Program-made: the position numbers and the translations under genes
Source: Alphaproteobacteria bacterium
GTDB taxonomy: Bacteria > Pseudomonadota > Alphaproteobacteria > CAAHEQ01 > UBA3637
Assembly: GCA_017467335.1 (NCBI GenBank)
Contig: JAFTSJ010000027.1
Coordinates: forward strand, 109-64,108
Reading direction: 5' to 3'
Length of the DNA: 64,000 bases
The notes under the pieces: generated by a model
What the model was told of the DNA's origin: nothing
Seen by the model: the letters and a program-made list of their open reading frames with translations, nothing else
Database searches by the model: none
Shown: positions 9,482-42,006 of the stretch, piece after piece
Layout of the letters: each line of letters begins with the position of its first letter
How positions within the stretch are numbered: the stretch's first letter is position 1

Positions 9482-10329
9482 TAGAATAAAACGCCCCCAT
9501 CGTTAAAATAACATATTATCAAAGCCGTAACAACTGAAGCAAACAATAATCCGTCAACCCGATCAAACAATCCGCCATGTCCGGGTATTAAATTGCTGGA
9601 ATCTTTTAGATTTAAACGCCGTTTGATGTAAGATTCGAAAAAGTCTCCGATTTGTGAGACAATAGCTAAGATTCCGGCTGATGAAACCAAAACGAATACC
9701 AGTTGGTTAAACGTAACGGTACTTTCCGGTAATAAATAATTGTATGCTTTCAGATAAAGAGCAAATCCATAAGCAACTAACATTGCAAATAAGATGGCAC
9801 CGGCCAGACCGGACCACGTTTTTTTGGCACTGATTTTAGGAGCCAGTTTAGGGCCTTTGACTGTTTTCCCGACTACATATCCGCCAATATCCGTAGCCCA
9901 TACAACGAAAAATAACCATAAAACAATTTCACGGCTGATTCCTTCGTTAACATAATAAATATAACCCAGTGACAAAATGGGCAAACAAATATAAAGTGTT
10001 CCCAATGAAAAAGCCAACCGACCATCTGTTTTCCAATATACAATAGTTAAGCCCAGTAAGGACAACCATAAAGCAAATCCCGGATTGCCTTCTGTCAAAA
10101 AAGCAACCAAACAGGCAAACAATGCCATAATAACGGTATTTGATGTCACTTTTTTATCAAACATAATGCTCCATTCCCAAGCAAGACCAACGCCGAATGT
10201 AGCTAATAGAATTGTATATAGCGGGATGGAATAAATTTCATAGAAAAATTTTCCGAACCAAATACTTCCCAAAACCAACGGAGCTAATACAACCGCTGAT
10301 ATTGTTCTTAAAAACAAATTTGAATGCAT
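9481..10329 (-). CDS. cdsA: Phosphatidate cytidylyltransferase
   Basis: Polytopic membrane protein carrying the CdsA signature SYIKRRLNLKDSSNLIPGHGGLFDRVD. Confidence 0.93.
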   Translation of the reverse strand: MHSNLFLRTISAVVLAPLVLGSIWFGKFFYEIYSIPLYTILLATFGVGLAWEWSIMFDKKVTSNTVIMALFACLVAFLTEGNPGFALWLSLLGLTIVYWKTDGRLAFSLGTLYICLPILSLGYIYYVNEGISREIVLWLFFVVWATDIGGYVVGKTVKGPKLAPKISAKKTWSGLAGAILFAMLVAYGFALYLKAYNYLLPESTVTFNQLVFVLVSSAGILAIVSQIGDFFESYIKRRLNLKDSSNLIPGHGGLFDRVDGLLFASVVTALIICYFNDGGVLF

Positions 10330-10569
10330 GTGTTAATCCTTTCATCAGTTGCACTCAATATTGCAGATTTTAGTGTTCCTGTCAAGCCTTTATTCATCTT
10401 TTAAAACAGGAAAAGAATATTTTTAACCACTTGATTTTTATTGTTAATTATTTGTTTACTTTTAACCATAATAAAATATTCATTTTTTTTATTGTTTTGA
10501 TTTCAAGGTTAAAATCGTATTGTAAAAAACGGATTTCGGATAATCGAAGGGGCTTTTTTTAAAAATAAC

Positions 10570-10598
10570 TTGACGAGAAAGAAAAGAAAACGTACACT
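10570..10598 (+). promoter_or_regulatory. Candidate sigma-70 promoter for ptsP
   Basis: TTGACG (10570-10575), 17-nt spacer, TACACT (10593-10598). About 40 nt upstream of the ptsP ATG. Confidence 0.4.
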
Positions 10599-10639
10599 AT
10601 TTTGCAGAAAGTGTTTTATTCATAAAGAGGATATGCTTT

Positions 10640-12919
10640 ATGCAGTCAACATCAACAACCTTTAATCGAACCGTTACGGCTCAAAAAGCCGTTTCGGAAC
10701 AATTATTAAAAGGTGTTCGAAAAGAAGTTCGTAAATCGGATGTTGCAACGGAAAATAAACTCAATAAGATTGTTTCTGAAATTGTTCATATATTAAAAGT
10801 TGATGTTTGCTCTTGTTATATTGTTCGCCCCGGTGATGTATTGGAGTTATATGCAACAAAGGGATTAAACGATAAATCCGTGCATGATACTTTTTTGCGT
10901 GTTGGGGAAGGGTTGGTTGGAGAAATTGCTCTTAAAAGAAAACCGCAATCTTTTAATAATATATGGGAACATGCTAGTTTTGTTTATAAACCTGAAACGG
11001 GTGAAACTCATTTTAATTCTTTGGCCGGTGTTCCGATTTTGCATGAAAACGTACTGTTGGGAGTATTATGTGTTCAAACGGTTGAACCGGCTATATATAC
11101 CAATGAAACGTTGGATTTGTTACAAATTATTGCGATGGCCTTGTCGGGTATTTTATCCGGAATAGCCATTGGAAGTGTTGAAAAGAAAATCGGTGTTGGT
11201 CGTCAGCATAAAAAATTTGAAGTTGATAAGATTATTTCCGGTATAGCATTGGGGCGTGCATTTGTGCATAAGCGGCTTGTATTGGGGAAGGTTATAGCCG
11301 GTAGCGTTACGAAGGAAATTAAACGTCTTGATACGGCTATGAAGGCTGTTGAAACAGAAATCAATCAAATGTTGTCAAAGCCGAATATGTCAGAAGAACA
11401 AACGGGTATTTTAGAAACCTATTTAATGTTTGTTCGTGATAAGGGATGGCATAACAAGATACTTAAATCGATTCATGACGGCTTAACGGCGGAAGCATCT
11501 GTACAACGTTCTTGTGGTGAAATGACGGAACGTATGCGTCTGATTACAGATACGTATATTCGGGAACGCATACATGATTTTCAAGATTTAACCAATCGAC
11601 TGATGCGTCATTTGCAAGGAGAACAGGTATCAGTTGTTAAAAAACTGCCTAAAAATACGATTTTGGTTGCTGAAAGTTTAGGGCCTGCTGAATTGTTGGA
11701 TTATGATATTTCTCGCATAAAGGCAATTGTTTTGGAAGAAGGGTCGCAAACAATGCACGTTGTTATTGTTGCCCGTTCATTTAATATACCGGTTGTTGCC
11801 GGTGTTAAAAATATATCTTCCATCGTTTTAAATGATGATGTTTTGGCAGTTGATGCAGATGATGGCTTCTTATATTTGAATCCGTCTGATGAAGTTTTAG
11901 ATGAATTTGAATCAAAAATTAAAATTCATCGCCGATTGCAAAATCGATTAGAACAGTTAAGCGGATTACCGGCCATTACCTTGGATGGAGTTGATATTTC
12001 TCTTAATATCAATGCCGGTTTACCCAGTGATTTGATTAAGGCTAAATCCGCTATGTTTGACGGCATTGGTTTATATCGGACGGAATTGCCATTCATGTCT
12101 TCGGAACAATTGCCGGATGTTAAAGAACAAACGGCTATTTATCAGCGAGTTACCCAAGAAATGAAAGATAAGCCGGTTGTGTTTCGGACGCTGGATATTG
12201 GTTCAGATAAGGTTTTACCTTATTTTGAAAACAAAGGTGAAAAAAATCCGGCGATGGGATGGCGTTCTATTCGGATTACTTTGGATAGGCGGGCTATTTT
12301 GCGTGGGCAATTAAGAGCTTTTATTCGGGCATGTGCCGGTAAGAAATTGCATGTTATGTTCCCGATGATAACGACCATAGAAGAGTTTCGTCAGGCAAAA
12401 GAGGCTTTAAATATTGAATTGTGCCGAGAACGTGAAAAAGGTAAACCGTTGCCGAAAGAAGTGCAAATCGGGACAATGTTGGAAGTACCGTCTTTGTTAT
12501 TTCAGATGGAATCGCTTGTGAAAGAAGTTGATTTTGTATCAATCGGAACAAATGATTTAGCTCAGTTTTTATTTGCAACCGATAGAAGCAATTCAATGAT
12601 ATGGACACGATATGACACCTTATCACCGGCTTTTTTGAAAATGTTAAGATATGTTAATACAACCTGTCAGCAGGCCGGTATTTCGTGTTGTGTGTGTGGT
12701 GAAATGGCCTCTCGTCCGTTAGAGTGTATGGCTTTGATTGGATTGGGATTTAAAAAAGTTTCCATGAATCCTGGAGCATTGGGGCGTATTAAGGCACTTG
12801 TTCGAACGGTTAATCAATCGCAGTTGGAATCGTTTATTGTGCGTCATTTGTCGGATACAACGGAAACGTTAAGACCGCTTTTGCAATCGTATGCAATTGA
12901 TCATGATATATTTATATGA
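10640..12919 (+). CDS. ptsP: Phosphoenolpyruvate-protein phosphotransferase EI-Ntr (GAF domain plus PEP-utilizing enzyme domains)
   Basis: 759 aa with an N-terminal GAF-like region and EI motifs (GSQTMHVVIVARS, GIGLYRTE, IGTNDL). Confidence 0.9.
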   Translation: MQSTSTTFNRTVTAQKAVSEQLLKGVRKEVRKSDVATENKLNKIVSEIVHILKVDVCSCYIVRPGDVLELYATKGLNDKSVHDTFLRVGEGLVGEIALKRKPQSFNNIWEHASFVYKPETGETHFNSLAGVPILHENVLLGVLCVQTVEPAIYTNETLDLLQIIAMALSGILSGIAIGSVEKKIGVGRQHKKFEVDKIISGIALGRAFVHKRLVLGKVIAGSVTKEIKRLDTAMKAVETEINQMLSKPNMSEEQTGILETYLMFVRDKGWHNKILKSIHDGLTAEASVQRSCGEMTERMRLITDTYIRERIHDFQDLTNRLMRHLQGEQVSVVKKLPKNTILVAESLGPAELLDYDISRIKAIVLEEGSQTMHVVIVARSFNIPVVAGVKNISSIVLNDDVLAVDADDGFLYLNPSDEVLDEFESKIKIHRRLQNRLEQLSGLPAITLDGVDISLNINAGLPSDLIKAKSAMFDGIGLYRTELPFMSSEQLPDVKEQTAIYQRVTQEMKDKPVVFRTLDIGSDKVLPYFENKGEKNPAMGWRSIRITLDRRAILRGQLRAFIRACAGKKLHVMFPMITTIEEFRQAKEALNIELCREREKGKPLPKEVQIGTMLEVPSLLFQMESLVKEVDFVSIGTNDLAQFLFATDRSNSMIWTRYDTLSPAFLKMLRYVNTTCQQAGISCCVCGEMASRPLECMALIGLGFKKVSMNPGALGRIKALVRTVNQSQLESFIVRHLSDTTETLRPLLQSYAIDHDIFI

Positions 12920-12926
12920 GGAAAAA

Positions 12927-13655
12927 ATGAAAATAAAAGCAATTATATTAGGGGCAGGCATGGGAACAAGAATGGGTTCCCCGATACCGAAGGTATTGAA
13001 TACTATTTGTAATCGTCCGATGATTAACATTTTATTAGATACGGTAAAAGAAAGTAAGATTGATGATGTAACGGTTGTGATTGGACCGGATATGGATAAT
13101 GTTAAAAAGGCTGTTCAACCGCATAAAACGGTTGTGCAACAGGAACGATTAGGGACGGCTCATGCCGTATTGGCAGCTGAAACGGAAATTGCTCCTTTTA
13201 ACGGCTGTGTTTTAATTTTATTTGGCGATCAACCTTTATTCACACCGCCGACATTACAAAAAATGTGTGATAAATGTATGACCGGTTCGGATGTGGTTGT
13301 TTTGGGATTTATTCCGACTGATGCTCGACGTTACGGTCGTTTGGTTATGGGAGAAGATGGTTTGGATGCTATTGTCGAATATAAAGATGCGACTGATGCC
13401 CAACGAGCGATTAAATTATGTAATTCGGGTGTTATGTGTGTTAATGGTCAATATTTGTTATCCCTTTTGAAAAAAATTAAAAATGAAAATGCCGCTCATG
13501 AATATTATTTGACGGACATTGTTGCGTTGGCGAAAGAGCAGGGATTGAAACGGGATGTTGTCATTGGTGATTCAGATGAATTGCATGGCGTCAATACGCC
13601 TGAAGAATTAGAATTAGCGGAAGCCATCTATAAAAAAAGGATGAATGTATGTTAA
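12927..13655 (+). CDS. Stand-alone GlmU-like sugar-1-phosphate uridylyltransferase domain, with no acetyltransferase domain
   Basis: ILGAGMGTRM..PKVL, QQERLGTAHAV, FGDQPL, YGRLV, EYKDAT, EYYLTD and GVNT match the GlmU N-terminal domain. The ORF stops before any hexapeptide-repeat domain. Start set at ATG 12927, behind a GAGGA RBS. Confidence 0.75.
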   Translation: MKIKAIILGAGMGTRMGSPIPKVLNTICNRPMINILLDTVKESKIDDVTVVIGPDMDNVKKAVQPHKTVVQQERLGTAHAVLAAETEIAPFNGCVLILFGDQPLFTPPTLQKMCDKCMTGSDVVVLGFIPTDARRYGRLVMGEDGLDAIVEYKDATDAQRAIKLCNSGVMCVNGQYLLSLLKKIKNENAAHEYYLTDIVALAKEQGLKRDVVIGDSDELHGVNTPEELELAEAIYKKRMNVC

Positions 13656-13879
13656 AATTGATATGGGTTACTTTTTGGCTCATTTTGATTTTGGCGGCAT
13701 TTACGTTATTGGTTGGTTTTTTTTCGAATGACAGCGTGGCTCAAAAATGCAGTCAATCATTGTCGGATTGTTTAACAAAAACATCCGAATATGACGGTTG
13801 GCGAAAATATATTCAAGGAATAAATTGTTTGGGGTTAAATGCTGTTTGTATTGTACAACAGATAAAAGAGGTGTTTTAA
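13649..13879 (+). CDS. Small membrane or secreted protein (76 aa, 4 Cys)
   Basis: Hydrophobic N-terminus LIWVTFWLILILAAFTLLVGFF. The start overlaps the upstream stop (ATGTTAA) and the stop overlaps the glk start (TAATG), so it appears translationally coupled on both sides. Confidence 0.5.
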   Translation: MLKLIWVTFWLILILAAFTLLVGFFSNDSVAQKCSQSLSDCLTKTSEYDGWRKYIQGINCLGLNAVCIVQQIKEVF

Positions 13880-14916
13880 TGTCGGTTTTTTTATTAACAG
13901 ATATTGGTGGTACGCATGTTCGGTTTTCTGTATATGACGGGGAAAAAGCATCAAAACCGGAACGTTATGCAACTCAGGATTTTTTAACATTTGAAGATGC
14001 TGTTCGTCACTATATGCAGACAAAGGACGTTGTTTTGTCCGGTATGGTTATCGGAGCGGCCGGTATGCGTCAAAATAATTGTGTTCGTTTGACAAATTGT
14101 CCATGGGTTATCAATACGGAAACATTGCAGACACAATTTCGCTTAAATCGAGTCATTTTGTTGAATGATTTTGCTTTGCAGGGGTTAGGCGTATTGCATT
14201 GTGAAACATCGGATTATATTTTGATTGGAGAAACGGAAACATTACCGATTGGACCGAAAGCAATTATCGGAGCCGGAACCGGTTTAGGGGTTTGTTTTTT
14301 AACATCTGATACAAATAATCGGTATCAGGTTTTTGAATCGGAAGGCGGGCATTCGACTGTTGGAGGTGTTACACCGATAATGCGTATGATAATACAAAAA
14401 GCAAATGAAAAATTGCCTCATGTATCTTATGAACGATTTATATCCGGGCCGGGATTGATGTTTTTGTATCAAATCATGGGTGAAAATTATCAAGAATGGT
14501 CTCATCATTTATTATCTGATGAAATTATGAACATGCAACGAGCATGGTCTTTTGTACCGATTTCTTCGGAAAATGATAAATGGCAAGCTGTTTCAACGCC
14601 CCCTGAAATTACACAACTGGCAGAGCAAGGTAATGAAATTGCTTTAATGACCTGGTGGTTGTTTTTTGAATTTTTAGGTGTTTTTTGTGCTGATATGGCA
14701 TTAACCCTTAAAACGACAGGAGGTGTTTATTTGGTTGGAGATTTATTGAAACAACCGTTTATAGCCAAAATGTTGCAACGGTCATATTTAAGAAAGATGT
14801 TTGAAACAAAAGGACGTTTTTCAAAATTTACGAAACAAATACCACTCATGTTGGTTACAAAAAATGATATACCACTTTGTGGATTGACACATATTGCCAA
14901 AAACGTTTGGAAATAA
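13879..14916 (+). CDS. glk: Glucokinase
   Basis: N-terminal LLTDIGGTHVRFS ATP-binding motif and Glk-family layout. Start moved to ATG 13879. Confidence 0.85.
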   Translation: MSVFLLTDIGGTHVRFSVYDGEKASKPERYATQDFLTFEDAVRHYMQTKDVVLSGMVIGAAGMRQNNCVRLTNCPWVINTETLQTQFRLNRVILLNDFALQGLGVLHCETSDYILIGETETLPIGPKAIIGAGTGLGVCFLTSDTNNRYQVFESEGGHSTVGGVTPIMRMIIQKANEKLPHVSYERFISGPGLMFLYQIMGENYQEWSHHLLSDEIMNMQRAWSFVPISSENDKWQAVSTPPEITQLAEQGNEIALMTWWLFFEFLGVFCADMALTLKTTGGVYLVGDLLKQPFIAKMLQRSYLRKMFETKGRFSKFTKQIPLMLVTKNDIPLCGLTHIAKNVWK

Positions 14917-15088
14917 AGTTTTTGAAGTTGGATAGTTTTCTATGGAGAGAATGATTAGAGTATTCTTTTGTGTTTTTTGCATATGAATATTCTTTTAAAA
15001 TAAATGGGTTGTAAAAAAAATACAAAAAATACAAAAAAAGTTCTTGCAATTTGAAAAGAAATCTGATAGAAATACATTCATACCCGAT

Positions 15089-15165
15089 GGGGGTGTAGCT
15101 CAGCTGGTTAGAGCGCCTGCCTGTCACGCAGGAGGCCGAGGGTTCGAGTCCCTTCACTCCCGCCA
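15089..15165 (+). tRNA. tRNA-Asp (GTC)
   Basis: Cloverleaf folded by eye: acceptor GGGGGTG/CACTCCC, anticodon loop CTGTCAC, T-arm GGTTCGAGTCC, encoded CCA end. Confidence 0.93.
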
Positions 15166-15167
15166 TT

Positions 15168-15196
15168 AAAAAACCACCGTGAAGGTGGTTTTTTTT
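15168..15196 (+). terminator. Rho-independent terminator after tRNA-Asp
   Basis: aaaaaaccacc-gtgaa-ggtggtttttttt hairpin followed by a T-run. Confidence 0.8.
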
Positions 15197-15421
15197 ATGT
15201 TCGAGTTTCAGAATTCTCACCCTATGGGTTCTCGTCTAATTCCACCATCTGTTCAACAAAGGCTTTTGGGTTGCAGGTGTATGTTTGAATGAGTGGAATT
15301 TGACTAGATGGTTTAACTCCTACGATTGGGAGATAATATTGTATTAAATGACCGTACTGCTTTTATTTGTTTTTTCACCTTCAAATATCTGTTAAAGATT
15401 ATTAGTGAAAGTAAAAAGAAG

Positions 15422-15450
15422 TTGACACCTAAACCTAAAACAGGTATTAA
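15422..15450 (+). promoter_or_regulatory. Candidate sigma-70 promoter for the Cys-rich/MORN gene
   Basis: TTGACA (15422-15427), 17-nt spacer, TATTAA (15445-15450). Confidence 0.45.
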
Positions 15451-15548
15451 CCTATATATTGCACGTAAGGGGAGAACAGAAAAATTGATGTCAGAACAAC
15501 ATCATTCCCCTCTCATCATTTGTTTGTGCATTAAATGAGGGAAATAAA

Positions 15549-17321
15549 ATGAAAAAGATATTATTTGTTATTTGTTTGATAATTAGTTCATCTGTTTTTG
15601 CCCAAGAACAAATTATGTTTGCAAGTTGTCCGGATTCGTATGTTATGGACGAACAAGGAAAGTGTCGTCCTTGTTCTGAATTGATGAAATTTAAGACCTT
15701 GAAAAATGCTGATTGTTCTCAAAAGTGTCGAACAAAAGATGGGCAATATATCAGAAAAATCGGTCGTTGGGGGTGTGAATTGGTTGCATGTCCCAATGGT
15801 TCATTTGATAGTTTTGGCAACTGTCAGGTTGCAAAAACAACAACGTGTCCATCAGATCGCCCTTTACTGGATAAGGAAGGTAAATGTCATCCATGTGATG
15901 AATTATCTAGAATTAAATTAAAAAATAAGGATGATTGTGAAGCCCTTTGTCAGATTGACGGAAAGTCATTAAGACACGATACATTTTGGGGATGTTCTTT
16001 AAAGGAGTGTCCCCCAAACGCTCAAAAAGACAATTTTGAAAATTGCCATATATTCCCCAGCAAGTGTCCGGCAACACATCCGTTACGTGAAAAAAATTAT
16101 TGTTTTGATTGCGCATATGAAGGGGTTGTCGATTTAGATGAGAAAAATGTTCATTTGTGTTCACAAATGTGTCAAGACAGCCAAGGTAATCCGACACGAC
16201 AATTATTTCAAAATGCCGGTTGTGGGTTAATCACTTGTCCAACAGATAAACCGTTAAGAAGTAATGGAAGTTGTGTATCTTGTGATAGTGAAATGTCTTA
16301 TCCGACAAATAAATGTGATATATGTCCTCAAAGAACAATTGTTAATTTTGATAATCAGGAATGGTGTGCTTTAAAAACATGTCCGACAGACAAACCGTTA
16401 CGGGGATTGTATGGTGATTGTTATTCTTGTGATGATGACGAGGAAGTTTATGTTGAACAGCAAGTTTGTTTATCAAGTTGTCCTAATCGACAGGTTGAAA
16501 AAGTAGATTTGTCTGATATCGGTATATATGATAAAAGTGTTCAATCGATAGAAGCCTGTCTTTTGAAAAAATCAAAGAAAACAAGTAAAAATATTGATTT
16601 TTCATCGATGAGTAGAAACAGGACTGTTTTGAAACCTAAATTTGAAACAAGTCATTGTCCGGAAGATAAACCGTTAATGGATTATAATGGAGAATGTTAT
16701 ACATGCGATGATCCCGGATTGATTACTTTAGAATTAGAAGATTTATGTTCAAAATGTCCGAATAGAGTATATACGGATTTGTTCCATTATACAGAGGAAG
16801 GTGTTTCATATCGGTACATTTGTAAAATTGCCGAGGAAAAGGATATCCGACTTCGTCGTGAAGGAAACAGTTTTTACTATTATGACCAAAACAATCAATT
16901 AGTTGAAGAAAAACATCTGTTATCGGATAATCCTGAATCGGATACGTTATACAAATATTACAAAAACGGCGTTTTGTGGCGTGTTCAATATCAGCTGAAT
17001 TATCGAAGAAACGGTATTGAACAACGATATGATGCTAATGGAAAATTAGAATCAGAAATACCTTATAAAAATAATAAAATGGATGGGATTGTGAAAAACT
17101 TTTTTCCGGACGGAAAGATAAAATCTGAAATTCCGTATCAAAACAATAAAAAATCCGGTTTGGGGAAATGGTACCATCCTAACGGTGTGTTGTCATCAAC
17201 CGGATACTATAAAAATGATGTTTTCGAGGGGGAATATAAACTGTTTAATCAACAAGGAGAAGTGATTGAAGTTGGTGTTTATAAAAATGGAAAAATAATC
17301 AATCGCCAAAAATTAAAATAG
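15549..17321 (+). CDS. Secreted Cys-rich repeat protein with C-terminal MORN-variant (YwqK-like) repeats
   Basis: Sec signal peptide MKKILFVICLIISSSVFA|QE. Six modules of the type CP.D(K/R)PL....G.C..C(D/S) ... C..(.)C. The C-terminus carries repeats with a period of about 23 aa (Y.NGkl.sEIPYkNNK.dG). Confidence 0.8.
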   Translation: MKKILFVICLIISSSVFAQEQIMFASCPDSYVMDEQGKCRPCSELMKFKTLKNADCSQKCRTKDGQYIRKIGRWGCELVACPNGSFDSFGNCQVAKTTTCPSDRPLLDKEGKCHPCDELSRIKLKNKDDCEALCQIDGKSLRHDTFWGCSLKECPPNAQKDNFENCHIFPSKCPATHPLREKNYCFDCAYEGVVDLDEKNVHLCSQMCQDSQGNPTRQLFQNAGCGLITCPTDKPLRSNGSCVSCDSEMSYPTNKCDICPQRTIVNFDNQEWCALKTCPTDKPLRGLYGDCYSCDDDEEVYVEQQVCLSSCPNRQVEKVDLSDIGIYDKSVQSIEACLLKKSKKTSKNIDFSSMSRNRTVLKPKFETSHCPEDKPLMDYNGECYTCDDPGLITLELEDLCSKCPNRVYTDLFHYTEEGVSYRYICKIAEEKDIRLRREGNSFYYYDQNNQLVEEKHLLSDNPESDTLYKYYKNGVLWRVQYQLNYRRNGIEQRYDANGKLESEIPYKNNKMDGIVKNFFPDGKIKSEIPYQNNKKSGLGKWYHPNGVLSSTGYYKNDVFEGEYKLFNQQGEVIEVGVYKNGKIINRQKLK

Positions 17322-17344
17322 TATTCCTATATTTTTAAAATTGC

Positions 17345-17392
17345 AAAAACGTCCGTTTGATATATCAAAATGTATTCAGACGGCGTTTTTTT
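17345..17392 (+). terminator. Rho-independent terminator
   Basis: aaaaacgtccgt ... acggcgttttttt hairpin (one bulge) followed by a T-run. Confidence 0.6.
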
Positions 17393-17475
17393 AGGGACAA
17401 AAAATAGAGTTGTTTTTAAGATAAAAATATGATAAATTATATAGGAATGTGTCATGGATGATTGAGGAGAAAAAT

Positions 17476-20400
17476 ATGCTTGTTACCGAAATGAAGCAGA
17501 GAATGCGTGCAGATTTTGAAGATAAATTCCGAATTTTAACCGGTACAGCGGAACAAGAACAACAATGGCAAGATTATTTTCAAGGAATTTGCCAACGTTT
17601 GTTAGGACCTCAAATTAATCTTGAAGAACATCCCATTCGCTTTTGCGTTTCTGATAGAAATAGTGTTAATGCGTTTTATCTGCCTCCACAAAAACCTCTT
17701 CCCAACAAATTTTATTTACCGGAAGAATTGGAAGAATTTGAACATCAAATTCCGTGTATTATTATTTATAAAGGTATGTTAGAGGCTGTTCAAAATGAAG
17801 ATCAACTGGCTTTCTTTTTAGGACATGAATTGGGACACTGGAAGACGGATGTATTTGATACAAAAGATACAGAAACACATGAAAATACAAAACTTGAAGA
17901 AGAAACTGCTGATATTCAGTCACTACAGATGATGGCTGATAGTGGTTACAATATCAATGAAGCATATAAAATCAGTGAAGGTTTCTTACATTCGGAAAAA
18001 TTGAATAATGCGGATGAAATAATTACCCGTTCATTGGATCATCATTTGAATAATGAAGACCGATTATTGGCAATCGGGACGACTATTCGACAGTTGGATG
18101 TTGAATATGCCGTTAAGGGGATTGATTTGGATTCTTATTCAACTCATGATATCCCGTTGGAATTTCGGGAGGAAATTAAGCAAAAACATCATGTTTCTCA
18201 AATTAAAAAAGATTTGCGTTCTTTGGGATATTATGATGTGTCTCTGGCTGAAAAACAAGATATTTTATTCAATTATTTAAATACGGTTTTAGCTAGTCGT
18301 GATATAGATGAAGGTTGGTATCTTTCTTTATTAAAAGACGTGTTACAAGAACATATTTTAGAACTGATGCATAATATTCCCAGAACAATTGTTCGTCAAA
18401 GCGATTATAATCTTTTGACACAACGTTTGTCAAAAGATGAATTGCAAAAATTAAAACCCTTATGGCAACAAATTGTTGGGAAACAATATGATTATGAATT
18501 TAATTCCTTTTACCGAAAAGATGTGTTGGATGCTTTTCCGTATAAAGTTGTTCCGGATGATGTGTACGAGCAAGAACACGCCGAGCAGGAAGAAAAACGC
18601 AAGCTGTTTTATCGACAAATTGATTCGGAACAAAATTTAAATGTATTATTTTGGAATCAACTAATGGATTGGGCTGCTCATGGTTATGCAAAAGATTTGT
18701 TTCTTTCATGTGCGGGATTACCTTTATCGGTTGTTCCTCAAATTGATTTAACAAAAACATCTTTTGGGCGTTGGACCAATTCATTTTTTAATGAAGATCA
18801 ACGTGTTTTTGTTGAGTTGATGTCTTACTCAATACACAGTATTCGTGAAAGTGATTTTTCATTGTTGCCGACAGAATTTTTACCTTTTGAGATTCAAAAT
18901 CCTTATCATTGCCTACAACATATTTTTTATCGATTTACCCCTAATTCATTTCCTGAATTAGATTTGGAAATGAGTGAAAATGATTGTCAAAAGTCTATGC
19001 CTCGGTGCTGTTTTGTATCTTACTTATCAGACTCATTCGGTGTCAGAGAAATTAACTATAGCGGACCATCTACAATTGTATCATATGTTCCTCATAATCG
19101 TGACCCGTTTAACAGAAAAAACGCCGAGTGGTGTTATGTTATTGAAAATGGTAAAATTGTTGATTCATTTCCTTATCAGAATAAAGAAAAAACTTGGGAA
19201 CGTGTTCGTAGCAGACACAAATATCAATTTCAAAAAGCAGTTGCCGATCATATCAAAGATGTGTATGGTATGCTTATGAAAATAAAAGAAAATTATCAAA
19301 CTCACGGATTAAACGCTCATCAATTAAGATTGGTAAAATCGTTCACATCTCCGGGGGCGTTTTTTAAAATTTCGTCATCAGCGGCTCAACGATATTTTGA
19401 TACATTAAACGATGAACAAAACGTATCTTATACAGGACGGGATCGAAAAAAACAAATAATGGCTTTTTTCCGTTCACAAGGTAATATCGGTTATCTTTTT
19501 GATTTTGAAACTTTCTACGATGAAGATTTGTTAAAAACATTTTTAACGGAAGAAGAAAGAGCCTTTTTCTTTGACGGATATAATGCTGATAATGACAACC
19601 TTGTTTTTCAAGCACTTCGAGCCGGTCATTTTGAAAATCCGGAAGAATTTAAGTGGTTGTTGGCGTGTGGAGATAATTTTTGTTGGTTTTCAGAATATGT
19701 TGAGATAGAGAACGGATATGACCACTTGCATACGAATCGGCAAGTTTTACAATATTTACATGATTATTTGAACCAGTTGTCAACGGATGAAATCCAGAAA
19801 CAGACACAATTACAACAAAGAGTTTTTGATGTTGAATGGAGAAATTTACATTATTTTGTGGAAAAACAATTAGAGGAAAATCCGCAACTGACAGGAGCTG
19901 ATGTTGATTTTTCGTCTTATTCTTATTTGATATTGGATGAAATGGCTGAAAAATTGGGTGTTCCCATTCATTTTTCGGATTACAGTATTGCCGAACATGG
20001 CATTCATAAAGGAAAAGTTGATTTTAGATGGAATAATCGTATTGCTGAAATTTTGAAAAAAAATAAAATTGCTGATAAGGGTATGAATATAAATCGTTAT
20101 AATATACAGTCGTTTATGCTTATCATGTATATTTTAACTGATGAAACACATACATTGCCGTTAGGTGAAATTTTTATTGATCAAGATATCATCTATTCAT
20201 TACTTCCTTATCCGTGTTTGGAAGAAAAATTATTACCATTTTTGTATCGCCGCAAAAATTACCCGACTGATTCGGTTGAAGCGTTGAAAACTTTTAGTAA
20301 TATTATTCGACCGTTAAGAAAAAGTACGGCTCCTATATTTAATGTCGCATTGGATATTGTGCTTGATGAAAAGGATATTCAAAAATCACTGGAAGCGGCT

Positions 20401-36740: not shown

Positions 36741-36764
36741 AGGCGAGCCGGTATTGGCTCGCCT
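36741..36764 (+). terminator. Rho-independent terminator
   Basis: GC-rich 9-bp stem aggcgagcc / ggctcgcct with a 6-nt loop. Confidence 0.7.
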
Positions 36765-37004
36765 TCTTGACGAATCGATGTGTATTTTGTGTATCAATTG
36801 ATATAAGTACGATATAAAACCGTTTTATCATATTTTCCTGCCAAAAAAATGCTTCCGCTGGTTACCGCTTTTTACCGTTTTTTACCTAACATTTCCGATA
36901 AATACCTGAATTTTCTTATTTTAATTGTTTATATGAGAGGTAAAATTTCTTATACTGTCAAAAGGGAATAATCCCGATAATCATATTTTTTAAAGGAGAA
37001 AAAA

Positions 37005-37775
37005 ATGCCATTTGACAGTGAAGGAAATTTTACACGGATTCACAGTTGGGAAGATGACCGTGTAAACGGAATTGAAATTGTAACGGAAAGACATGATGAA
37101 GAAGACGATAATTTTGCCGCCGGATTTAATGAAACATTTTTGCGAGATGGTCGTGTTGCCATGACCGGTGTTATAGATATGGGTGGTTATAAAATTCAAA
37201 ATTGTGGAAAAGGTGTTATTGGTACAGATTTAATTACCAAAGACCAGTTAACGGATAATGTGATAACAACAACCAATAATTTGATGTTAGTTGGTGATAT
37301 AAAGGCATCTGTTATTCCATATAACCATTCATGTTGGTTATTGTGTAACGGGCAAGCTGTTTCAAGAACGGAATACAGTGAATTATTTTCTTTGATTGGA
37401 ACAACATTTGGAGCCGGTGATGGTGTTACAACATTTAATATTCCGAATTATCAAGGAAAATTTTTGCGAGGATTGGGAGGGGATAGTGCAGGCAGTATTG
37501 CAGAAACCCAACAAGAAGGATTACCGAACATTTACGGACGAGCCGGTATCGGTATTCAAGAAAATTTGGCACCTTTTGATATTTCGGCAGCAAACGGTTC
37601 ATTTTACAATGCCGGTGTTACAGGTGTTAATAAAGCCCATTATCCGGATTGGCAGGTTCAATCATATTATCTTGATTTTGATGCATCTCGTGTCAGTCAT
37701 ATTTACGGGGCCAGCACGCATGTTACACCGGTCAATCAAGCTGTTTACTATTTTATAAAAGCCAAAAATTTATAG
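37005..37775 (+). CDS. Phage tail-collar-domain fibre protein
   Basis: WLLCNGQAVSRTEYSELFSLIGTTFGAGDGVTTFNIPNYQGKFLRG is the canonical Phage_Tail_Collar motif. The N-terminus (F.R...W..D...G..I....HD.EDDNFA.G....L.RDG...MTG..DMGG.KI.N) is typical of tail-fibre N-termini. Confidence 0.85.
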   Translation: MPFDSEGNFTRIHSWEDDRVNGIEIVTERHDEEDDNFAAGFNETFLRDGRVAMTGVIDMGGYKIQNCGKGVIGTDLITKDQLTDNVITTTNNLMLVGDIKASVIPYNHSCWLLCNGQAVSRTEYSELFSLIGTTFGAGDGVTTFNIPNYQGKFLRGLGGDSAGSIAETQQEGLPNIYGRAGIGIQENLAPFDISAANGSFYNAGVTGVNKAHYPDWQVQSYYLDFDASRVSHIYGASTHVTPVNQAVYYFIKAKNL

Positions 37776-37783
37776 GAGGAAAT

Positions 37784-38137
37784 ATGACAAGTCGTATTAC
37801 ATCTACATCAATTACTGTAACACAGGGTGATTCTTTACCGATTTTATTAACTTTTAACCAAGATATTACCGGTGCTGTTATTACAATGCAAGTTCGCAAT
37901 GATGACGATAAGCTGATATTAAGTAAAACAGTGACGGAACATTTAAATCCACTCAAAGGAGAAACACTTTTAAATTTAACGCCTAAAGAAACATCTGTTC
38001 CTGTTGGTATATATCGAACGGATATGGAAATTACGTTTTCAGATGGAGCTAAATATACCTTTTATCCGCCTCAAATCGGTAAAACGGCCTGTTTTCATGT
38101 GACAACGCAAATTACACGAGAGGATGGTTTAATATGA
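37784..38137 (+). CDS. Small all-beta (Ig-like) phage tail accessory protein
   Basis: 117-aa ORF, 8 nt after the collar gene and overlapping the next gene by 4 nt. The beta-strand-rich sequence resembles BppU-N/Ig-like fibre adaptor domains (weak). Confidence 0.5.
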   Translation: MTSRITSTSITVTQGDSLPILLTFNQDITGAVITMQVRNDDDKLILSKTVTEHLNPLKGETLLNLTPKETSVPVGIYRTDMEITFSDGAKYTFYPPQIGKTACFHVTTQITREDGLI

Positions 38138-39597
38138 TAAGATTAGCAAATGAAACAGATATTGTCCCCCAACATGAACTTGTCGTTGATATAAAACCAC
38201 AAAATGAAGTTCATGTAACGGTTGGGGCACTTCATTGTGTTTTACAAACCGATGCGGTTTGGGTTCGTAATGGTGAAAAAGAAGTTCAATATTATGTTGA
38301 TACGGTTGTTAAACCGGAATTGAATCAAATTATTACGCAAGGAAAAGATGATTTTCAGCATATTATTTCGGAAGAAACAGATGAATTAAATCAATTGCTT
38401 GTGGACAATAAAGAATCGTATCAATCTTTTACTGATGAACAAAAAGATTTTTTTAATGCAAATGTACAAGAACAAACATCACAATTTAATCAACATGTGA
38501 TTTCTCAACAAAATATGTTAGATAATCATATTCTGGAAATTGAAGATACCTTTAATCAAAAACAATCTGATATAGAAGTATTGGCAGAACAAGTTGCTCA
38601 AAATACATCTGAAACGGCACAAAATACCGTTAAGACACAACAATATGTTGAACAATCTTCTCAATCGGCTCAAACAGCCCAAACAGCTGTTCAATCTGTT
38701 CAAGCAATACAAACCGATATTGGTCAAATCAAGAACGAAACAATATCTGTTTATGAACAGACCGTTGAACAGATTGATTTAGCCGCTGATTACACATTGA
38801 AAGCTCAACAATCAGCCCAAACGGCAACAGACAAATTAAACGAGGTTCAAACCTATGTTCAAGAAGCATCTCAATCAGCTCAAACAGCATTAACGGCTCA
38901 ACAATCAGCTCAAGACAGTTTACAACAAATGCAAATGTTGATGGATGATACGGTTACGGTAAGTGGCAATCAAATAATTACAGGTCGTAAAACATTTATA
39001 ACACCTCTTTATCGACAATCTGAAGAATTTGATTCAACTCAAAACAGCGTAGCGAACTACACTGCTGAGCCAATAGCCCAAGCAACGGACAAATCCGGTC
39101 GTTGTTTTATGAATTTGCAATATGGGAAAGAAACAAATGGAACATTGTTTGGACGATTGTCATTAAGTCGTTTAGTTAACGGTGCCACTCATGAACATTC
39201 TTTAAATATGGGGATTTCCAATGAGGGAATTGGTTTTATTCAGTGTCTATCACCTCAACCGGAAAGTAATTCAGCCGATATTGCCACAACACAATGGAGC
39301 AGGAATACCATTCGGGATATTACATTTCCTGATTGGGCAACATGTGTTGAAATTTCAGGAACGGGACAAAAATATGCCCCATATGACGGTGTTTTAATTG
39401 TCACACCGGAAGATCAAGGAGAATCTTGTTTTACAATGATAATCGGTGTTCATGAATATAATTTAGCTCAAGAATATTTTGGTGCAGACTATGGCCATAC
39501 GGGGTATGGTTTTTTCCCAATGAGAGCAAATTTACCTTATTCAATTACGCATATGTTCGGTTGTTATTGTCGGTTTTTCCGTTATATAGGAGGATAA
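38134..39597 (+). CDS. Phage tail-fibre protein (Q/A/S-rich coiled-coil shaft plus C-terminal globular domain)
   Basis: Repeats SQSAQTAQTAVQSVQ and SQSAQTALTAQQSAQ, followed by the fibre motif VSGNQIITGRKTF and about 210 aa of C-terminal domain. Confidence 0.75.
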   Translation: MIRLANETDIVPQHELVVDIKPQNEVHVTVGALHCVLQTDAVWVRNGEKEVQYYVDTVVKPELNQIITQGKDDFQHIISEETDELNQLLVDNKESYQSFTDEQKDFFNANVQEQTSQFNQHVISQQNMLDNHILEIEDTFNQKQSDIEVLAEQVAQNTSETAQNTVKTQQYVEQSSQSAQTAQTAVQSVQAIQTDIGQIKNETISVYEQTVEQIDLAADYTLKAQQSAQTATDKLNEVQTYVQEASQSAQTALTAQQSAQDSLQQMQMLMDDTVTVSGNQIITGRKTFITPLYRQSEEFDSTQNSVANYTAEPIAQATDKSGRCFMNLQYGKETNGTLFGRLSLSRLVNGATHEHSLNMGISNEGIGFIQCLSPQPESNSADIATTQWSRNTIRDITFPDWATCVEISGTGQKYAPYDGVLIVTPEDQGESCFTMIIGVHEYNLAQEYFGADYGHTGYGFFPMRANLPYSITHMFGCYCRFFRYIGG

Positions 39598-39981
39598 ATG
39601 AAAAAAATTATTGTACATTATGATTTGGAAACAAAAACGTGTGATGTTGCAGACGTAACACCGCAAAATACATTGTTGTTTCCCGATAAACCAATTGTTG
39701 AATGTGGTCAAGATTGGCGAGGTTGGTGGTATAAAGAATCTGAAATACCATCAAAGCCTGTAACTGTTCTGGAAGAAGAAGTACGAAAAAAAAGAGATAA
39801 TTATTTAAAAAAATATGTCGATTGTATTCAATTGGTATTACGATGGGAAACATTAACATCATCGGAACGCGAACAATATCGATTATATCGACAATATCTT
39901 TTGGATATTCCGCAACAAGCACAATTTCCGCAAATAACCGTTTTAACGTTTGACGAATGGTGTCAACATCCGTCAATTTGA
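39598..39981 (+). CDS. Tail-fibre assembly chaperone-like protein
   Basis: 127 aa, directly abutting the fibre gene. The C-terminal pattern RWETLTSSEREQYRLYRQYLLDIPQQAQFPQ resembles Tfa/DUF4376-type chaperones. Confidence 0.55.
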   Translation: MKKIIVHYDLETKTCDVADVTPQNTLLFPDKPIVECGQDWRGWWYKESEIPSKPVTVLEEEVRKKRDNYLKKYVDCIQLVLRWETLTSSEREQYRLYRQYLLDIPQQAQFPQITVLTFDEWCQHPSI

Positions 39982-40128: not shown

Positions 40129-42006
40129 GTGTTTAACATTGGAAAGATAAACCATAAATTTTTGATGATTGGTTTAGGACTTGTATGTCTGATAGGGGTT
40201 GGTTATTTCAGCCCCTCGTTGCGATTAGATACGATAACGCCCAATCATCATGAAAATTTTATTAAGCAAATTTCCAAACAGCATTTTTCGGATGCGGTTG
40301 TTTCCACTTTTCCGGATTATGATTATCATTTGTCTGAAATGGCTCAACGGGCATTAAGTGTCTATACCAATTCAGAAAATATCCATGTTATCGTTCGAAC
40401 GGATTTGTCTGTCAGTCATGAAGATACGGTTCGCCGAGATGTTTTCCCTGAAACATCGGTGATTCGCCGTCAATTGACGACAACACAAGAAAATAATGTT
40501 GTGATTAAAGATGCGACATACGATTATTCTACCGTTACAACAAAAACGCAAGCCTATTATTATCATATTAAAAAGATGAATGTATTGATTTTTTTGACAC
40601 AACATCAGCAATCATCGCTTGTCTTTGATAAATCTAAAATTCAAGAAATTATACAAACATCAATCGGATATGATATAAATCGAGGCGATTTGTTGCGGTT
40701 GATAGAAATACCGCATTCAATCAGTCATATGACCTTTACAAATAATCGTAACATACAAATTCGACAAATTTTTGCCATTATTTTTATGTGTTTGTTGGGT
40801 ATTCTTATTGTTAGTGGTGTTTTGATACCGCTATGTATTTCATTGGGACGTAAGCAACCGGTTATGTGTCAAAAAGCATTTGCACAAAAAGATGGTTATC
40901 ATCATCAAATCGTTGGACATATGGAAGAAAATTTAATTTTAAAAGCCCAAGATTTGTGCATGCGTATGCCCGAAGCAGCCGTTAATATCCTACGTAATTG
41001 GTTGTCATGGGAAAATCGTAAAAATAAAGAAAACGGCTCTTTTTCACCGGCTCAAAAGGCTGCCATTGTTTTACTGTGTTTGGGAGATAATTGCATTCGT
41101 CATTTGTTTAAAAAAATGACGGACACTGAAATTTTTTCTTTATCTCGTTTAATGGCTTCATTGGGTCAAGTTAAAGCCATAGAAATTCAACCGATTCTTT
41201 TATCTTTTTGTCATTCTATGAATGAACCGCAGGATATTCGAGAAACGAAACCGTTGATTGAAACAGTGATAAGAAATACGTTGCCGATTGATAAAGCGGC
41301 TGTTTTGTTAAAAGAATTGAAAATTCAAACGACACAAAAAACAATTTGGGATAAAGTTAATCAAGTACCGACTTCTCATTTAAGTTCTTTTTTATTGCAG
41401 GAATATCCGCAAACATCAGCTGTTATTTTGTATCACTTGACAACGGAAAAAGCCGCAGCGGTTTTGGCGGAAATGGATGCAAAAACAGGGGCTCAAATTT
41501 TATTAAGGTTAAGTTCTTTGCAATATATGGATAAAAATAATATTCATATGATTGAATTGAATTTAGAAAAACAAATAGATTCATTGATGAAGCGGGTCAA
41601 TGGTGTCGGGGAGAAAAAAGCCTCGGCCATATTAAGTTTGCTTGACAAAAAAACACAAGGGCGTTATATATCGTCATTAGAACGATTATCTCCGCAAACA
41701 GTTGGTGTACTTGAAAAAAATATTTTGAATTTTGATGATTTGGCTCATTGGCATTCTAAGGATTTAATTATCTTATTAAAGCACATTGACAATCAAACAT
41801 TGGTTTTGGCTTTATCGAATGCTCGTAATGCGACAAAAGAAGCGTTTTCTCGGGTTATTTCACCTCAAAAATGGAGTAAAATGCTAAATCAAATGCGACA
41901 AATGCCAATCGGTAAAATAGAAGATATTGATATGTCACAACGAGCCGTTATTCGTATTGCTCAACAATTGATAGAAAGTAAAAAATGTAAAGGAACAATA
42001 ATATGA
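40129..42006 (+). CDS. Natural FliF(shortened)-FliG fusion protein
   Basis: GTG start behind an AGAGGA RBS. Order of parts: TM1; a periplasmic part of about 185 aa ending KIQEIIQTSIGYDINRGDLLRLIEIP (the FliF motif that precedes TM2); TM2; the FliF tail motif EAAVNILRNWLSW; then a complete FliG (AAIVLLCLGDNCIRHLFKKMTDTEI..., EYPQ, C-terminal domain). Confidence 0.8.
   Translation: MFNIGKINHKFLMIGLGLVCLIGVGYFSPSLRLDTITPNHHENFIKQISKQHFSDAVVSTFPDYDYHLSEMAQRALSVYTNSENIHVIVRTDLSVSHEDTVRRDVFPETSVIRRQLTTTQENNVVIKDATYDYSTVTTKTQAYYYHIKKMNVLIFLTQHQQSSLVFDKSKIQEIIQTSIGYDINRGDLLRLIEIPHSISHMTFTNNRNIQIRQIFAIIFMCLLGILIVSGVLIPLCISLGRKQPVMCQKAFAQKDGYHHQIVGHMEENLILKAQDLCMRMPEAAVNILRNWLSWENRKNKENGSFSPAQKAAIVLLCLGDNCIRHLFKKMTDTEIFSLSRLMASLGQVKAIEIQPILLSFCHSMNEPQDIRETKPLIETVIRNTLPIDKAAVLLKELKIQTTQKTIWDKVNQVPTSHLSSFLLQEYPQTSAVILYHLTTEKAAAVLAEMDAKTGAQILLRLSSLQYMDKNNIHMIELNLEKQIDSLMKRVNGVGEKKASAILSLLDKKTQGRYISSLERLSPQTVGVLEKNILNFDDLAHWHSKDLIILLKHIDNQTLVLALSNARNATKEAFSRVISPQKWSKMLNQMRQMPIGKIEDIDMSQRAVIRIAQQLIESKKCKGTII

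Follow-up and report, generated by a model that had tools for sequence, protein, structure and literature searches.

What is a set of four phage tail-fibre genes doing in a bacterial chromosome with no phage around it? The window, that is, the whole 64,000-nucleotide stretch of an alphaproteobacterial draft genome (hereafter G000; 46 contigs, 1.32 Mb) that was analysed, carries such a cassette at positions 37005–39981, and no other phage genes are found within it. The original prediction called the cassette an orphan and offered three options: a domesticated adhesin, a distal accessory locus of a particle resembling a gene transfer agent (GTA) or a tailocin, or the remnant of a decayed prophage. 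The genome-wide search for a structural cluster that it proposed led to head, neck, packaging and lysis genes on a separate contig (C19, positions 12112–23789). The cassette is probably the operon for receptor binding in a GTA-type particle that derives from a podovirus and has been domesticated, and whose other genes are those on C19. It is thus an orphan within the window but not in the genome.

The cassette consists of four intact open reading frames on the + strand, present in a single copy in G000 and tightly packed with spacings of 8, −4 and 0 nt, as first described. The first gene, p1 (37005–37775), encodes a short fibre of 256 aa with a C-terminal tail-collar domain. It matches Pfam Collar PF07484 (E 1.8e-19, 69.9 bits against a gathering cut-off of 24), contains the collar motif GTTFGAGDGVTTFNIPNYQG that the prediction had quoted, and matches many PHROG tail-fibre families, as well as the ‘Long tail fiber’ of PDB 8kec (E 4.6e-9). 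Its N-terminal anchor spans about 85 aa, and the N-terminus is kept across 78 related loci. The second gene, p2 (37784–38137), encodes an accessory protein of 117 aa with an Ig-like beta-sandwich, a fold borne out by its AF2 model (pLDDT 91.6); 70 sequences of it were aligned, and its gene invariably lies between those of the two fibres. Its sole family match is phrog_1084, of unknown function. The top PDB neighbours of the model are immunoglobulin V domains (TM 0.54); the fold was rejected as a functional clue, the Ig sandwich being generic and its structural neighbours uninformative.

The third gene, p3 (38134–39597), encodes a long coiled-coil fibre of 487 aa that carries both the ITGRKTF motif and the Q/A/S-rich helix noted earlier. 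It is made of an N-terminal domain (residues ~25–150), a coiled-coil shaft of ~225 residues and a beta-rich, lineage-specific C-terminal domain. No family match was found in Pfam or PHROG profiles and no match in a PDB sequence search; AF2 places helices at residues 47–164 and 171–271, with a confidence (pLDDT 40.6) too poor for a fold search. Most species of the genus have fibres of 536–940 aa that share the conserved N-terminus of p3. The C-terminal domains of the fibres are wholly different between species, and residues 285–487 of p3 are found in only two clusters, its own, among 5.8 billion proteins. This domain is the presumed receptor binder. The fourth gene, p4 (39598–39981; 127 aa), begins on the base right after the p3 stop codon and encodes the expected Tfa-type tail-fibre assembly chaperone, matching Phage_tail_APC PF16778 (35 bits against a gathering cut-off of 26.6, E 1.3e-8) and phrog_4628, tail fiber assembly. 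Judged by eye, none of p1–p4 has an obvious N-terminal signal peptide.

The neighbours of the cassette are host genes, as had been noted. The gene on its 5′ side is a bPH_2 gene (PF03703), and on its 3′ side lie a FliF-FliG fusion, FlhF and an FlhG-like gene, the last named from sequence reading and position. A hairpin read directly from the sequence at 36742–36763 on the + strand (GGCGAGCC-GGTATT-GGCTCGCC, followed by TTCTTG) lies 3′ of the bPH gene and is probably a terminator shielding the cassette from upstream transcription. The prediction had called it strong; it has an 8-bp G+C stem and only a weak T tail, and was missed by a terminator scan that depends on T-runs. No convincing flanking repeats or tRNA att site surround the cassette, and homologues of the head, packaging and lysis genes of the related element are absent from the window's contig.

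Those homologues, along with the neck genes, were all mapped to C19:12112–23789. The order there is major capsid protein, 204-aa protein, head-tail adaptor, 519-aa nozzle-like protein, GNAT, virion proteins, holin-like protein, lysozyme, scaffold-like protein, GroES-like protein, portal, 132-aa protein and large terminase. The capsid protein matches the major head protein family phrog_9953 (E 5.6e-105) and the portal phrog_12082 (E 1.2e-105), the large terminase is a Terminase_3 and the lysozyme a Phage_lysozyme; the adaptor has a weak SU10-adaptor match. The 519-aa nozzle-like protein had no match in a PDB sequence search, nor did G000 yield a recognisable spanin. As in a GTA, the chromosome encodes a full phage-derived set for heads, tail attachment, packaging and lysis, here at two loci (C19:12112–23789 and window positions 37005–39981) that are both flanked by host genes.

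The two sets of genes belong together in related bacteria. In about 55 of 80 related loci from gut Alphaproteobacteria, the collar fibre, p2, the long fibre and the chaperone lie inside one conserved podovirus-like cluster of 13–16 kb, in which TerL, GroES-like protein, portal, scaffold, capsid, adaptor and c3 protein are followed by fibres, holin and lysozyme. The contiguous clusters contain no integrase, repressor or replication genes; in the species G005, the contiguous copy has host genes at both boundaries and likewise lacks all three. A 17-kb scaffold from human faeces, deposited as ‘Bacteriophage sp.’, also holds the contiguous cluster. In G000 the genes are split, and no integrase, att site, immunity or replication genes are found beside either locus or beside the contiguous relatives. 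The element thus lacks modules for replicating, integrating or maintaining lysogeny by itself and does not have the makeup of a functional prophage.

The two G000 loci also share a rare upstream element. Six phased T(A/G/T)CC(G/T) repeats with a spacing of 9–11 bp lie upstream of p1 at 36853–36907 (+ strand), and another such array precedes the capsid gene at C19:11674–11708. The 1.32 Mb of G000 contain three such arrays and five shuffles of it none; two of the three immediately precede the fibre cassette and the capsid cluster, respectively, and the third sits in a mobile element. Looser array rules gave extra matches that were discarded as chance, all of them inside host coding sequences. 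The array is kept upstream of p1 and the capsid gene in G009, the closest species to G000; in G010 it precedes the adaptor block, and in several species it heads fragments of the element. We propose that the repeats at 36853–36907 are a candidate binding site of a shared activator, although no regulator of the element was found.

Promoter-like boxes (AATTGTTTATAT and GGTAAAAT; 36923–36946, + strand) lie 16–40 bp 3′ of the array. The 12-mer TAATTGTTTATA recurs upstream of the capsid gene and of p1 in G009, and a related GT(G/T)TATA(A/T) box is found 3′ of arrays in six species. The leader of p1 can form a long-range hairpin (36940–37033, + strand) in which it pairs with p1 codons 2–10 and encloses the RBS and AUG; the arms are 26 nt long and 85% complementary, and the predicted RNA fold has −30.2 kcal/mol (z −5.9), compared with −21.8 kcal/mol (z −1.8) for the counterpart in G009. 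More tentatively, the terminator hairpins that the capsid leader also carries might point to control by antitermination.

Of 21 species of the genus, 20 have one intact copy of the capsid gene and 19 have one of p1; neither of these genes nor p3 is present in G006. How the pieces of the element are arranged varies with the species. In G005 and G012, p1 and the capsid gene are contiguous, in G001 a single contig carries them with 110 kb in between, and 14 of 19 species have them on different contigs. For G000, whose two loci also fall on different contigs, the contig flanks put at least ~30 kb of host DNA between them, a lower bound because the genome is a draft. Flanks are common to G000 and G009, and the glycosyltransferase beside the capsid gene is also found there in G001. 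Genes dispersed in this way are not packageable as one unit. A classical mark of GTAs is a head too small for the element's own genes; here this holds through the dispersal of the genes only, as the phages with the nearest capsids have genomes of 39–53 kb.

The genes evolve at the pace of the host. Between G000 and G009, dS is 0.5–1.2 in the element genes and 0.9–1.5 in most flanking host genes, no stop codon was seen at dS ~1, and dN/dS is 0.03–0.2 in all genes of the element but g153 (0.48). Portal and terminase have a dN/dS of 0.07. For the cassette, a dN/dS check of the kind proposed gave values of 0.04–0.21, which indicate purifying selection, among them 0.036 for p1, 0.064 for p2 and 0.09 for p4; the parts of p3 taken singly gave 0.33 (N-terminal), 0.25 (coil) and 0.12 (C-terminal). 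The capsid tree recovers the clades of the MutS tree in two genera, with an overall Spearman correlation of 0.72 and one of 0.95 inside the second genus. The capsid of G005 and G012 conflicts with the MutS tree (p-AU 0.036), which indicates some horizontal replacement; with that exception, the element shows the vertical inheritance and purifying selection of a GTA. None of the family's 15 other genera has the element, and a transfer into the ancestor of the genus and ancient descent are equally likely as its origin. In sum, both loci are present, intact, single-copy and co-occurring, are under purifying selection at the pace of the host, and carry the same rare array.

These data bear on the readings that compete with a GTA-type particle. 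If the cassette and the C19 cluster were remnants of decaying prophages, intact by chance, the missing integrase, the shuffled gene order and the losses in G006 would be expected. Neutral relics at such depth would, however, be full of stops, and a comparison at dS ~1 that gave low dN/dS and no stop codon contradicts this third option of the prediction, as do single intact copies in 19–20 of 21 species whose MutS identity falls to 56% and a capsid tree that follows the MutS tree; we regard it as very improbable. The first option, a free-standing adhesin or receptor-binding module that is linked to the cell surface or the flagella and independent of a capsid, is hardly more than conceivable. 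It draws on the FliF-FliG, FlhF and FlhG genes that adjoin the cassette and on the distance of the cassette from the head genes in most species. Yet the flagellar neighbours occur in G000 and G009 only, and elsewhere the neighbours are unrelated genes and FliF-FliG is on other contigs, so that we rejected a link to them; in addition, p1–p4 appear to lack signal peptides, both fibre N-termini match those of homologues inside the contiguous clusters, the presence or absence of the cassette tracks that of the capsid gene, and the upstream array is common to the capsid locus. It is more improbable still that the genes belong to a virus or satellite that has stayed mobile and depends on a helper for replication and spread: the human faecal scaffold and the discordant capsid of G005 and G012 would agree with it, but the distant, host-flanked loci of G000, G009, G001 and most of the genus are unpackageable as one unit, and there is one copy per genome, with flanks shared by G000 and G009.

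The nature of the particle leaves room for one further reading, a PBSX-type, head-containing killer or defective-phage particle, in which the cassette would have the same role but the particles would kill or lyse competitors, or do something else unrelated to transfer, and no DNA would be productively delivered. All the evidence for domestication fits it equally well, the wholly different fibre C-termini are what strain-targeting weapons would have, and Borodovich et al. voice the same caveat on FpGTA, the element of Faecalibacterium prausnitzii (PMC12946183). Against it stand a short-tailed particle without contractile or puncturing apparatus (Baseplate_J is absent) and the dN/dS of portal and terminase, which argues that DNA packaging matters; we consider it unlikely. 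The distal-locus option of the prediction thus stands in its GTA-like form, with C19 as the second locus and a rare array in common, and falls in its tailocin-like form. A tailocin or eCIS partner was rejected, the particle being unlike either because Baseplate_J PF04865 is absent in the genus; capsid, portal and terminase are present. Nor is the particle RcGTA-like, as neither the HK97 capsid family PF05065 nor GafZ/DUF6456 is present: PF05065 and PF20057 had no match in 13 genomes of the genus, G000 among them, and controls were positive. In another genus, the first gene of the cluster (164 aa) has a weak DUF6456 match (E 0.008), below the cut-off.

The GTA-type reading suggests how the particle could be made. 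An activator would bind the phased T(A/G/T)CCG repeats and turn both loci on together. Capsids would be built on portal and scaffold, the terminase would load DNA, and adaptor and nozzle would seal the head. p1 may dock onto the neck via its conserved N-terminus, p4 would aid the trimerisation of p3, the species-specific C-terminal domain of p3 would bind a surface receptor of kin cells, and p2, with its Ig-like fold, might be a linker or accessory protein. Release of the particles would fall to the holin-like protein and lysozyme. As the genes are split (by at least ~30 kb here and 110 kb in G001) and replication and integration genes are missing, viral propagation of the element is probably impossible, and the predicted cargo is most likely host DNA.

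The closest known counterpart is FpGTA, the first podovirus-like GTA-like element, published in 2026 (Borodovich et al., Nat Commun 2026, PMC12946183). Its head operon and its fibre/lysis operon lie ~125 kb apart (PMC12946183). Both elements are podovirus-like and gut-borne, have no replication or integration genes and carry a head/packaging operon distant from a fibre/RBP operon, and both sets are near-ubiquitous in their own genus. They differ in the host (Firmicutes versus Alphaproteobacteria here), in the lysis genes, which lie with the fibres in FpGTA and with the head genes here, and in the number of pieces, which varies by species here. Moreover, particles and 8.5–9 kb of packaged DNA have been shown experimentally for FpGTA (PMC12946183), whereas the particle of the present element is predicted from its genes.

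RcGTA has a siphovirus-like particle with an HK97-type capsid (PF05065) and a GafA/DUF6456 regulator, and its core head-tail cluster and distal tail-fibre and head-spike loci are under one activator; it has an alphaproteobacterial host and is inherited vertically under purifying selection. On its multilocus ‘genome’, see Hynes et al. 2016 (PMC5026251) and Bardy et al. 2020 (PMC7296036). The present element shares with it a core cluster plus a distal fibre locus, an alphaproteobacterial host, vertical inheritance and purifying selection, but its capsid is of the Mx8/Brucella Tb lineage and the 13 genomes lack PF05065 and DUF6456. The major capsid protein is 28–47% identical to those of the temperate podophages Mx8, Bradyrhizobium ppBjS10J-1, Stenotrophomonas BUCT555 and Brucella Tb. 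Phages of this lineage likewise have a short tail with an adaptor and a nozzle-like protein, collar-type fibres and Tfa chaperones, but they are autonomous viruses of 39–53 kb, whereas the present element is ~15 kb, split and without non-structural modules. The contiguous podovirus cluster of other gut Alphaproteobacteria has the same gene families; in the window's genus it is dismantled, with the fibre module at a chromosomal site of its own and behind a separate promoter region.

To our knowledge, few GTAs are known, and the literature searched contains no description of one from these gut Alphaproteobacteria. The particle kit described here, which this genus of uncultured gut bacteria has inherited and apparently kept functional, is likely a new GTA-like system. 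For annotation, ‘orphan’ tail-fibre cassettes should be checked genome-wide before they are named adhesins or remnants, and the phased T(A/G/T)CCG array provides a concrete cis-element for tracing the regulator. The genus forms a graded natural series, from contiguous clusters (G005 and G012) to genes scattered over 110 kb or more, in which one can directly observe how a virus is taken apart into a regulon under host control. Tentatively, we extend this to the whole genus as an ‘exploded’ podovirus-derived GTA, in which an ancestor of ~15 kb may have become two to five species-specific operons, each headed by an array, with the fibre cassette as a swappable specificity module; this would be the clearest stepwise prophage-to-regulon series and, if true, a second, independent lineage of alphaproteobacterial GTAs.

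The four open reading frames of the fibre cassette (37005-39981) lie exactly where the original prediction had placed them, all on the + strand and with gaps of 8, -4 and 0 nt. The first, p1 (37005-37775), carries a tail-collar domain (PF07484, E 1.8e-19) and the last, p4 (39598-39981), is a Tfa-type chaperone (PF16778, above cut-off), as had been proposed. The only match of p2 (37784-38137) was an unannotated PHROG, and its suggested Ig-like nature was borne out by an AF2 model (70 homologues, pLDDT 91.6) with an Ig-like sandwich. No family was matched by p3 (38134-39597), for which a low-confidence prediction gives a coiled coil of ~225 residues followed by what may be a beta-rich C-terminus. 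The cassette has the G+C content of the genome, is present once in the assembly (1.32 Mb, 46 contigs), and is real and intact.

The neighbours were also correctly named. Upstream, a bPH_2 gene is followed by a G+C hairpin, though its T tail is weak. The flagellar-type genes downstream encode a natural fusion of the C-terminal part of FliF to FliG (40129-42006, 625 aa), FlhF and an FlhG-like protein. This arrangement is conserved in the closest relative, G009, and only in these two genomes of the genus does the cassette lie beside flagellar-type genes. The p1 leader (36940-36965) can pair with codons 2-10 (37008-37033), enclosing the RBS and AUG (-30.2 kcal/mol, z -5.9); the counterpart fold in G009 is weaker (z -1.8). 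This fold could serve translational control or stability. Elsewhere in the window, at ~10300-10650, GC skew changes sign and the genes diverge, those before 10329 lying on the - strand and those after 10640 on the + strand; a replication origin or terminus may be located here.

The cassette had been described as an orphan, and this does not hold for the genome as a whole. We collected 80 loci with relatives of p1, every one from an uncultured alphaproteobacterium of the gut or rumen, and clustered their ORFs. In ~55 of them the genes for the collar protein, p2, fibre and chaperone are embedded in one conserved cluster. It begins with large terminase, GroES-like, portal, 76-aa, scaffold-like, major capsid and 190-aa genes, continues with the adaptor, 518-aa and one or two virion-protein genes, and ends with the fibres followed by holin-like and lysozyme genes; the order is permuted in ~16 of the 80. 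When these proteins were searched against the genome of the window itself, all the partners, a head, packaging and lysis set, were located on a second contig (C19:12112-23789). Profile searches there identified the major head protein (phrog_9953, E 5.6e-105), portal (phrog_12082, E 1.2e-105), large terminase (Terminase_3), a GroES-like protein, a tail protein with a weak SU10-adaptor match, a 519-aa protein (phrog_5107) taken as nozzle-like, a virion protein, a GNAT and a phage lysozyme. These genes are all on one strand, flanked by host BatA/B/D-like genes and a glycosyltransferase. Fibre genes are absent from C19, and the only genes of this podovirus-like element on the contig with the cassette (C13) are fibre genes; the contig flanks put at least ~30 kb between the two loci. 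One contiguous copy is MT835830.1, a 17-kb human-faecal scaffold labelled 'UNVERIFIED: Bacteriophage sp.' (G+C 51%, capsid 68% identical, no terminal repeat), which probably represents a GTA-like cluster of a chromosome and not the genome of a phage.

The two loci share upstream signals. Six T(A/G/T)CC(G/T) units spaced 9-11 bp apart precede p1 (36853-36907). A fixed rule of at least four units, run on the whole genome and on shuffles, found three phased arrays in the former and none in the latter: the one before p1, one ahead of the capsid gene (C19:11674-11708) and one on a third contig (C38:201-249). This third array has on one side a Fic-like gene truncated by the contig end and on the other a block that resembles a mobile element, with DUF2924, a large serine recombinase, a UvrD-like helicase, an ATPase-like gene and two unknown genes. 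It may be a lead to where the regulator comes from, or be unrelated. Applied to 333 kb of loci from relatives, this rule gave three arrays, each immediately before the gene that opens a fragment (p1 and the capsid gene in G009, the adaptor block in G010), and degenerate arrays precede element fragments in G001, G015 and G017. A GT(G/T)TATA(A/T) box follows the arrays by 25-35 bp. The capsid leader (~360 nt from array/promoter to gene) contains two terminator-like hairpins (C19:11776-11796 and 11841-11857), and similar pairs were seen by eye between array and adaptor block in G010, G015 and G017, which hints at antitermination control. Each fragment would thus carry a promoter that depends on an activator and is possibly controlled by antitermination. 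In other genera, p1 has no promoter region of its own and is coupled to the gene before it (median gap 12-20 nt). In a second genus, L024 and similar permuted loci are headed by a divergent gene pair: a 147-aa gene that reads like an HTH/XRE-type regulator without a Pfam match, and a 164-aa gene with a DUF6456 (GafZ-like) match below threshold. No homologues of either were detectable in the genome of the window.

A neutral remnant of a prophage is excluded by the distribution, selection and phylogeny of the element. In this genus, 20 of 21 species have a single, intact capsid gene, which occurs in 0 of 59 genomes from the family's 15 other genera; p1 is single-copy in 19 of 21, and one species (G006) lacks capsid gene, p1 and p3 together. 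Both loci have the same host flanks in the genome of the window and in G009. Between these two, dS is 0.5-1.2 for element genes and 0.9-1.5 for most flanking host genes, and dN/dS is low: 0.036 for p1, 0.064 for p2, 0.21 for p3, 0.09 for p4, 0.028 for capsid and 0.07 for portal and terminase, being higher only in a poorly conserved 153-aa ORF (0.48). Purifying selection acts on all three parts of p3, most strongly on the C-terminal domain (0.12). The capsid tree recovers every MutS-tree clade in this and the second genus except G005/G012, a long basal branch (p-AU 0.036 when constrained to its MutS position), which points to exchange for a foreign copy or to faster evolution; capsid and MutS pairwise identities correlate (Spearman 0.72 overall, 0.95 within the second genus). 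Inheritance looks like a long vertical one with occasional replacement. The contiguous cluster of G005 starts with a small-terminase-like ORF, ends with lysozyme and spanin-like genes, is bounded by host genes (PgpA; glycosyltransferase and PFOR) and contains no integrase, repressor or replication genes. Judged from these sequence comparisons, the element is domesticated and not a prophage.

The nearest capsids from cultured phages (28-47% identity) belong to Mx8, Bradyrhizobium ppBjS10J-1, BUCT555 and Brucella Tb, temperate podophages of 39-53 kb. The distal fibre and head-spike loci of the Rhodobacter GTA are the classical precedent for a separate cassette; RcGTA-like and tailocin-like identities were both rejected. 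The nearest parallel in function is FpGTA of Faecalibacterium, whose description calls it the first GTA-like element of podovirus type, and the first from the human gut, with head and fibre/lysis operons ~125 kb apart (PMC12946183). The literature searched yielded no report of GTAs in these gut Alphaproteobacteria.

Within the genus, the cluster is dismantled to different degrees. The contiguous ancestral order is kept in G005 and G012; in both, the collar domain is missing from the first fibre, which comes with an additional Tfa chaperone. Extra genes separate the capsid pair from the adaptor block in G010 and G017, and in G002, G018 and G008 terminase, capsid, lysozyme and portal are spread over 13-18 kb with foreign genes interspersed. 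In G001, 110 kb of the same contig separate the capsid gene from the cassette, which sits amid ankyrin-repeat and hypothetical genes. Finally, in the genome of the window and in G009, the head/lysis/packaging locus is re-ordered and the cassette separate. The cassette is probably the receptor-binding operon, at a distance from the other genes, of a predicted particle system that derives from a podovirus and is domesticated and co-regulated. Its particles may transfer DNA (GTA), kill (PBSX-like) or serve another purpose. In 14 of 19 species p1 and the capsid gene are on separate contigs, so that having an 'orphan' fibre cassette is normal for this genus.
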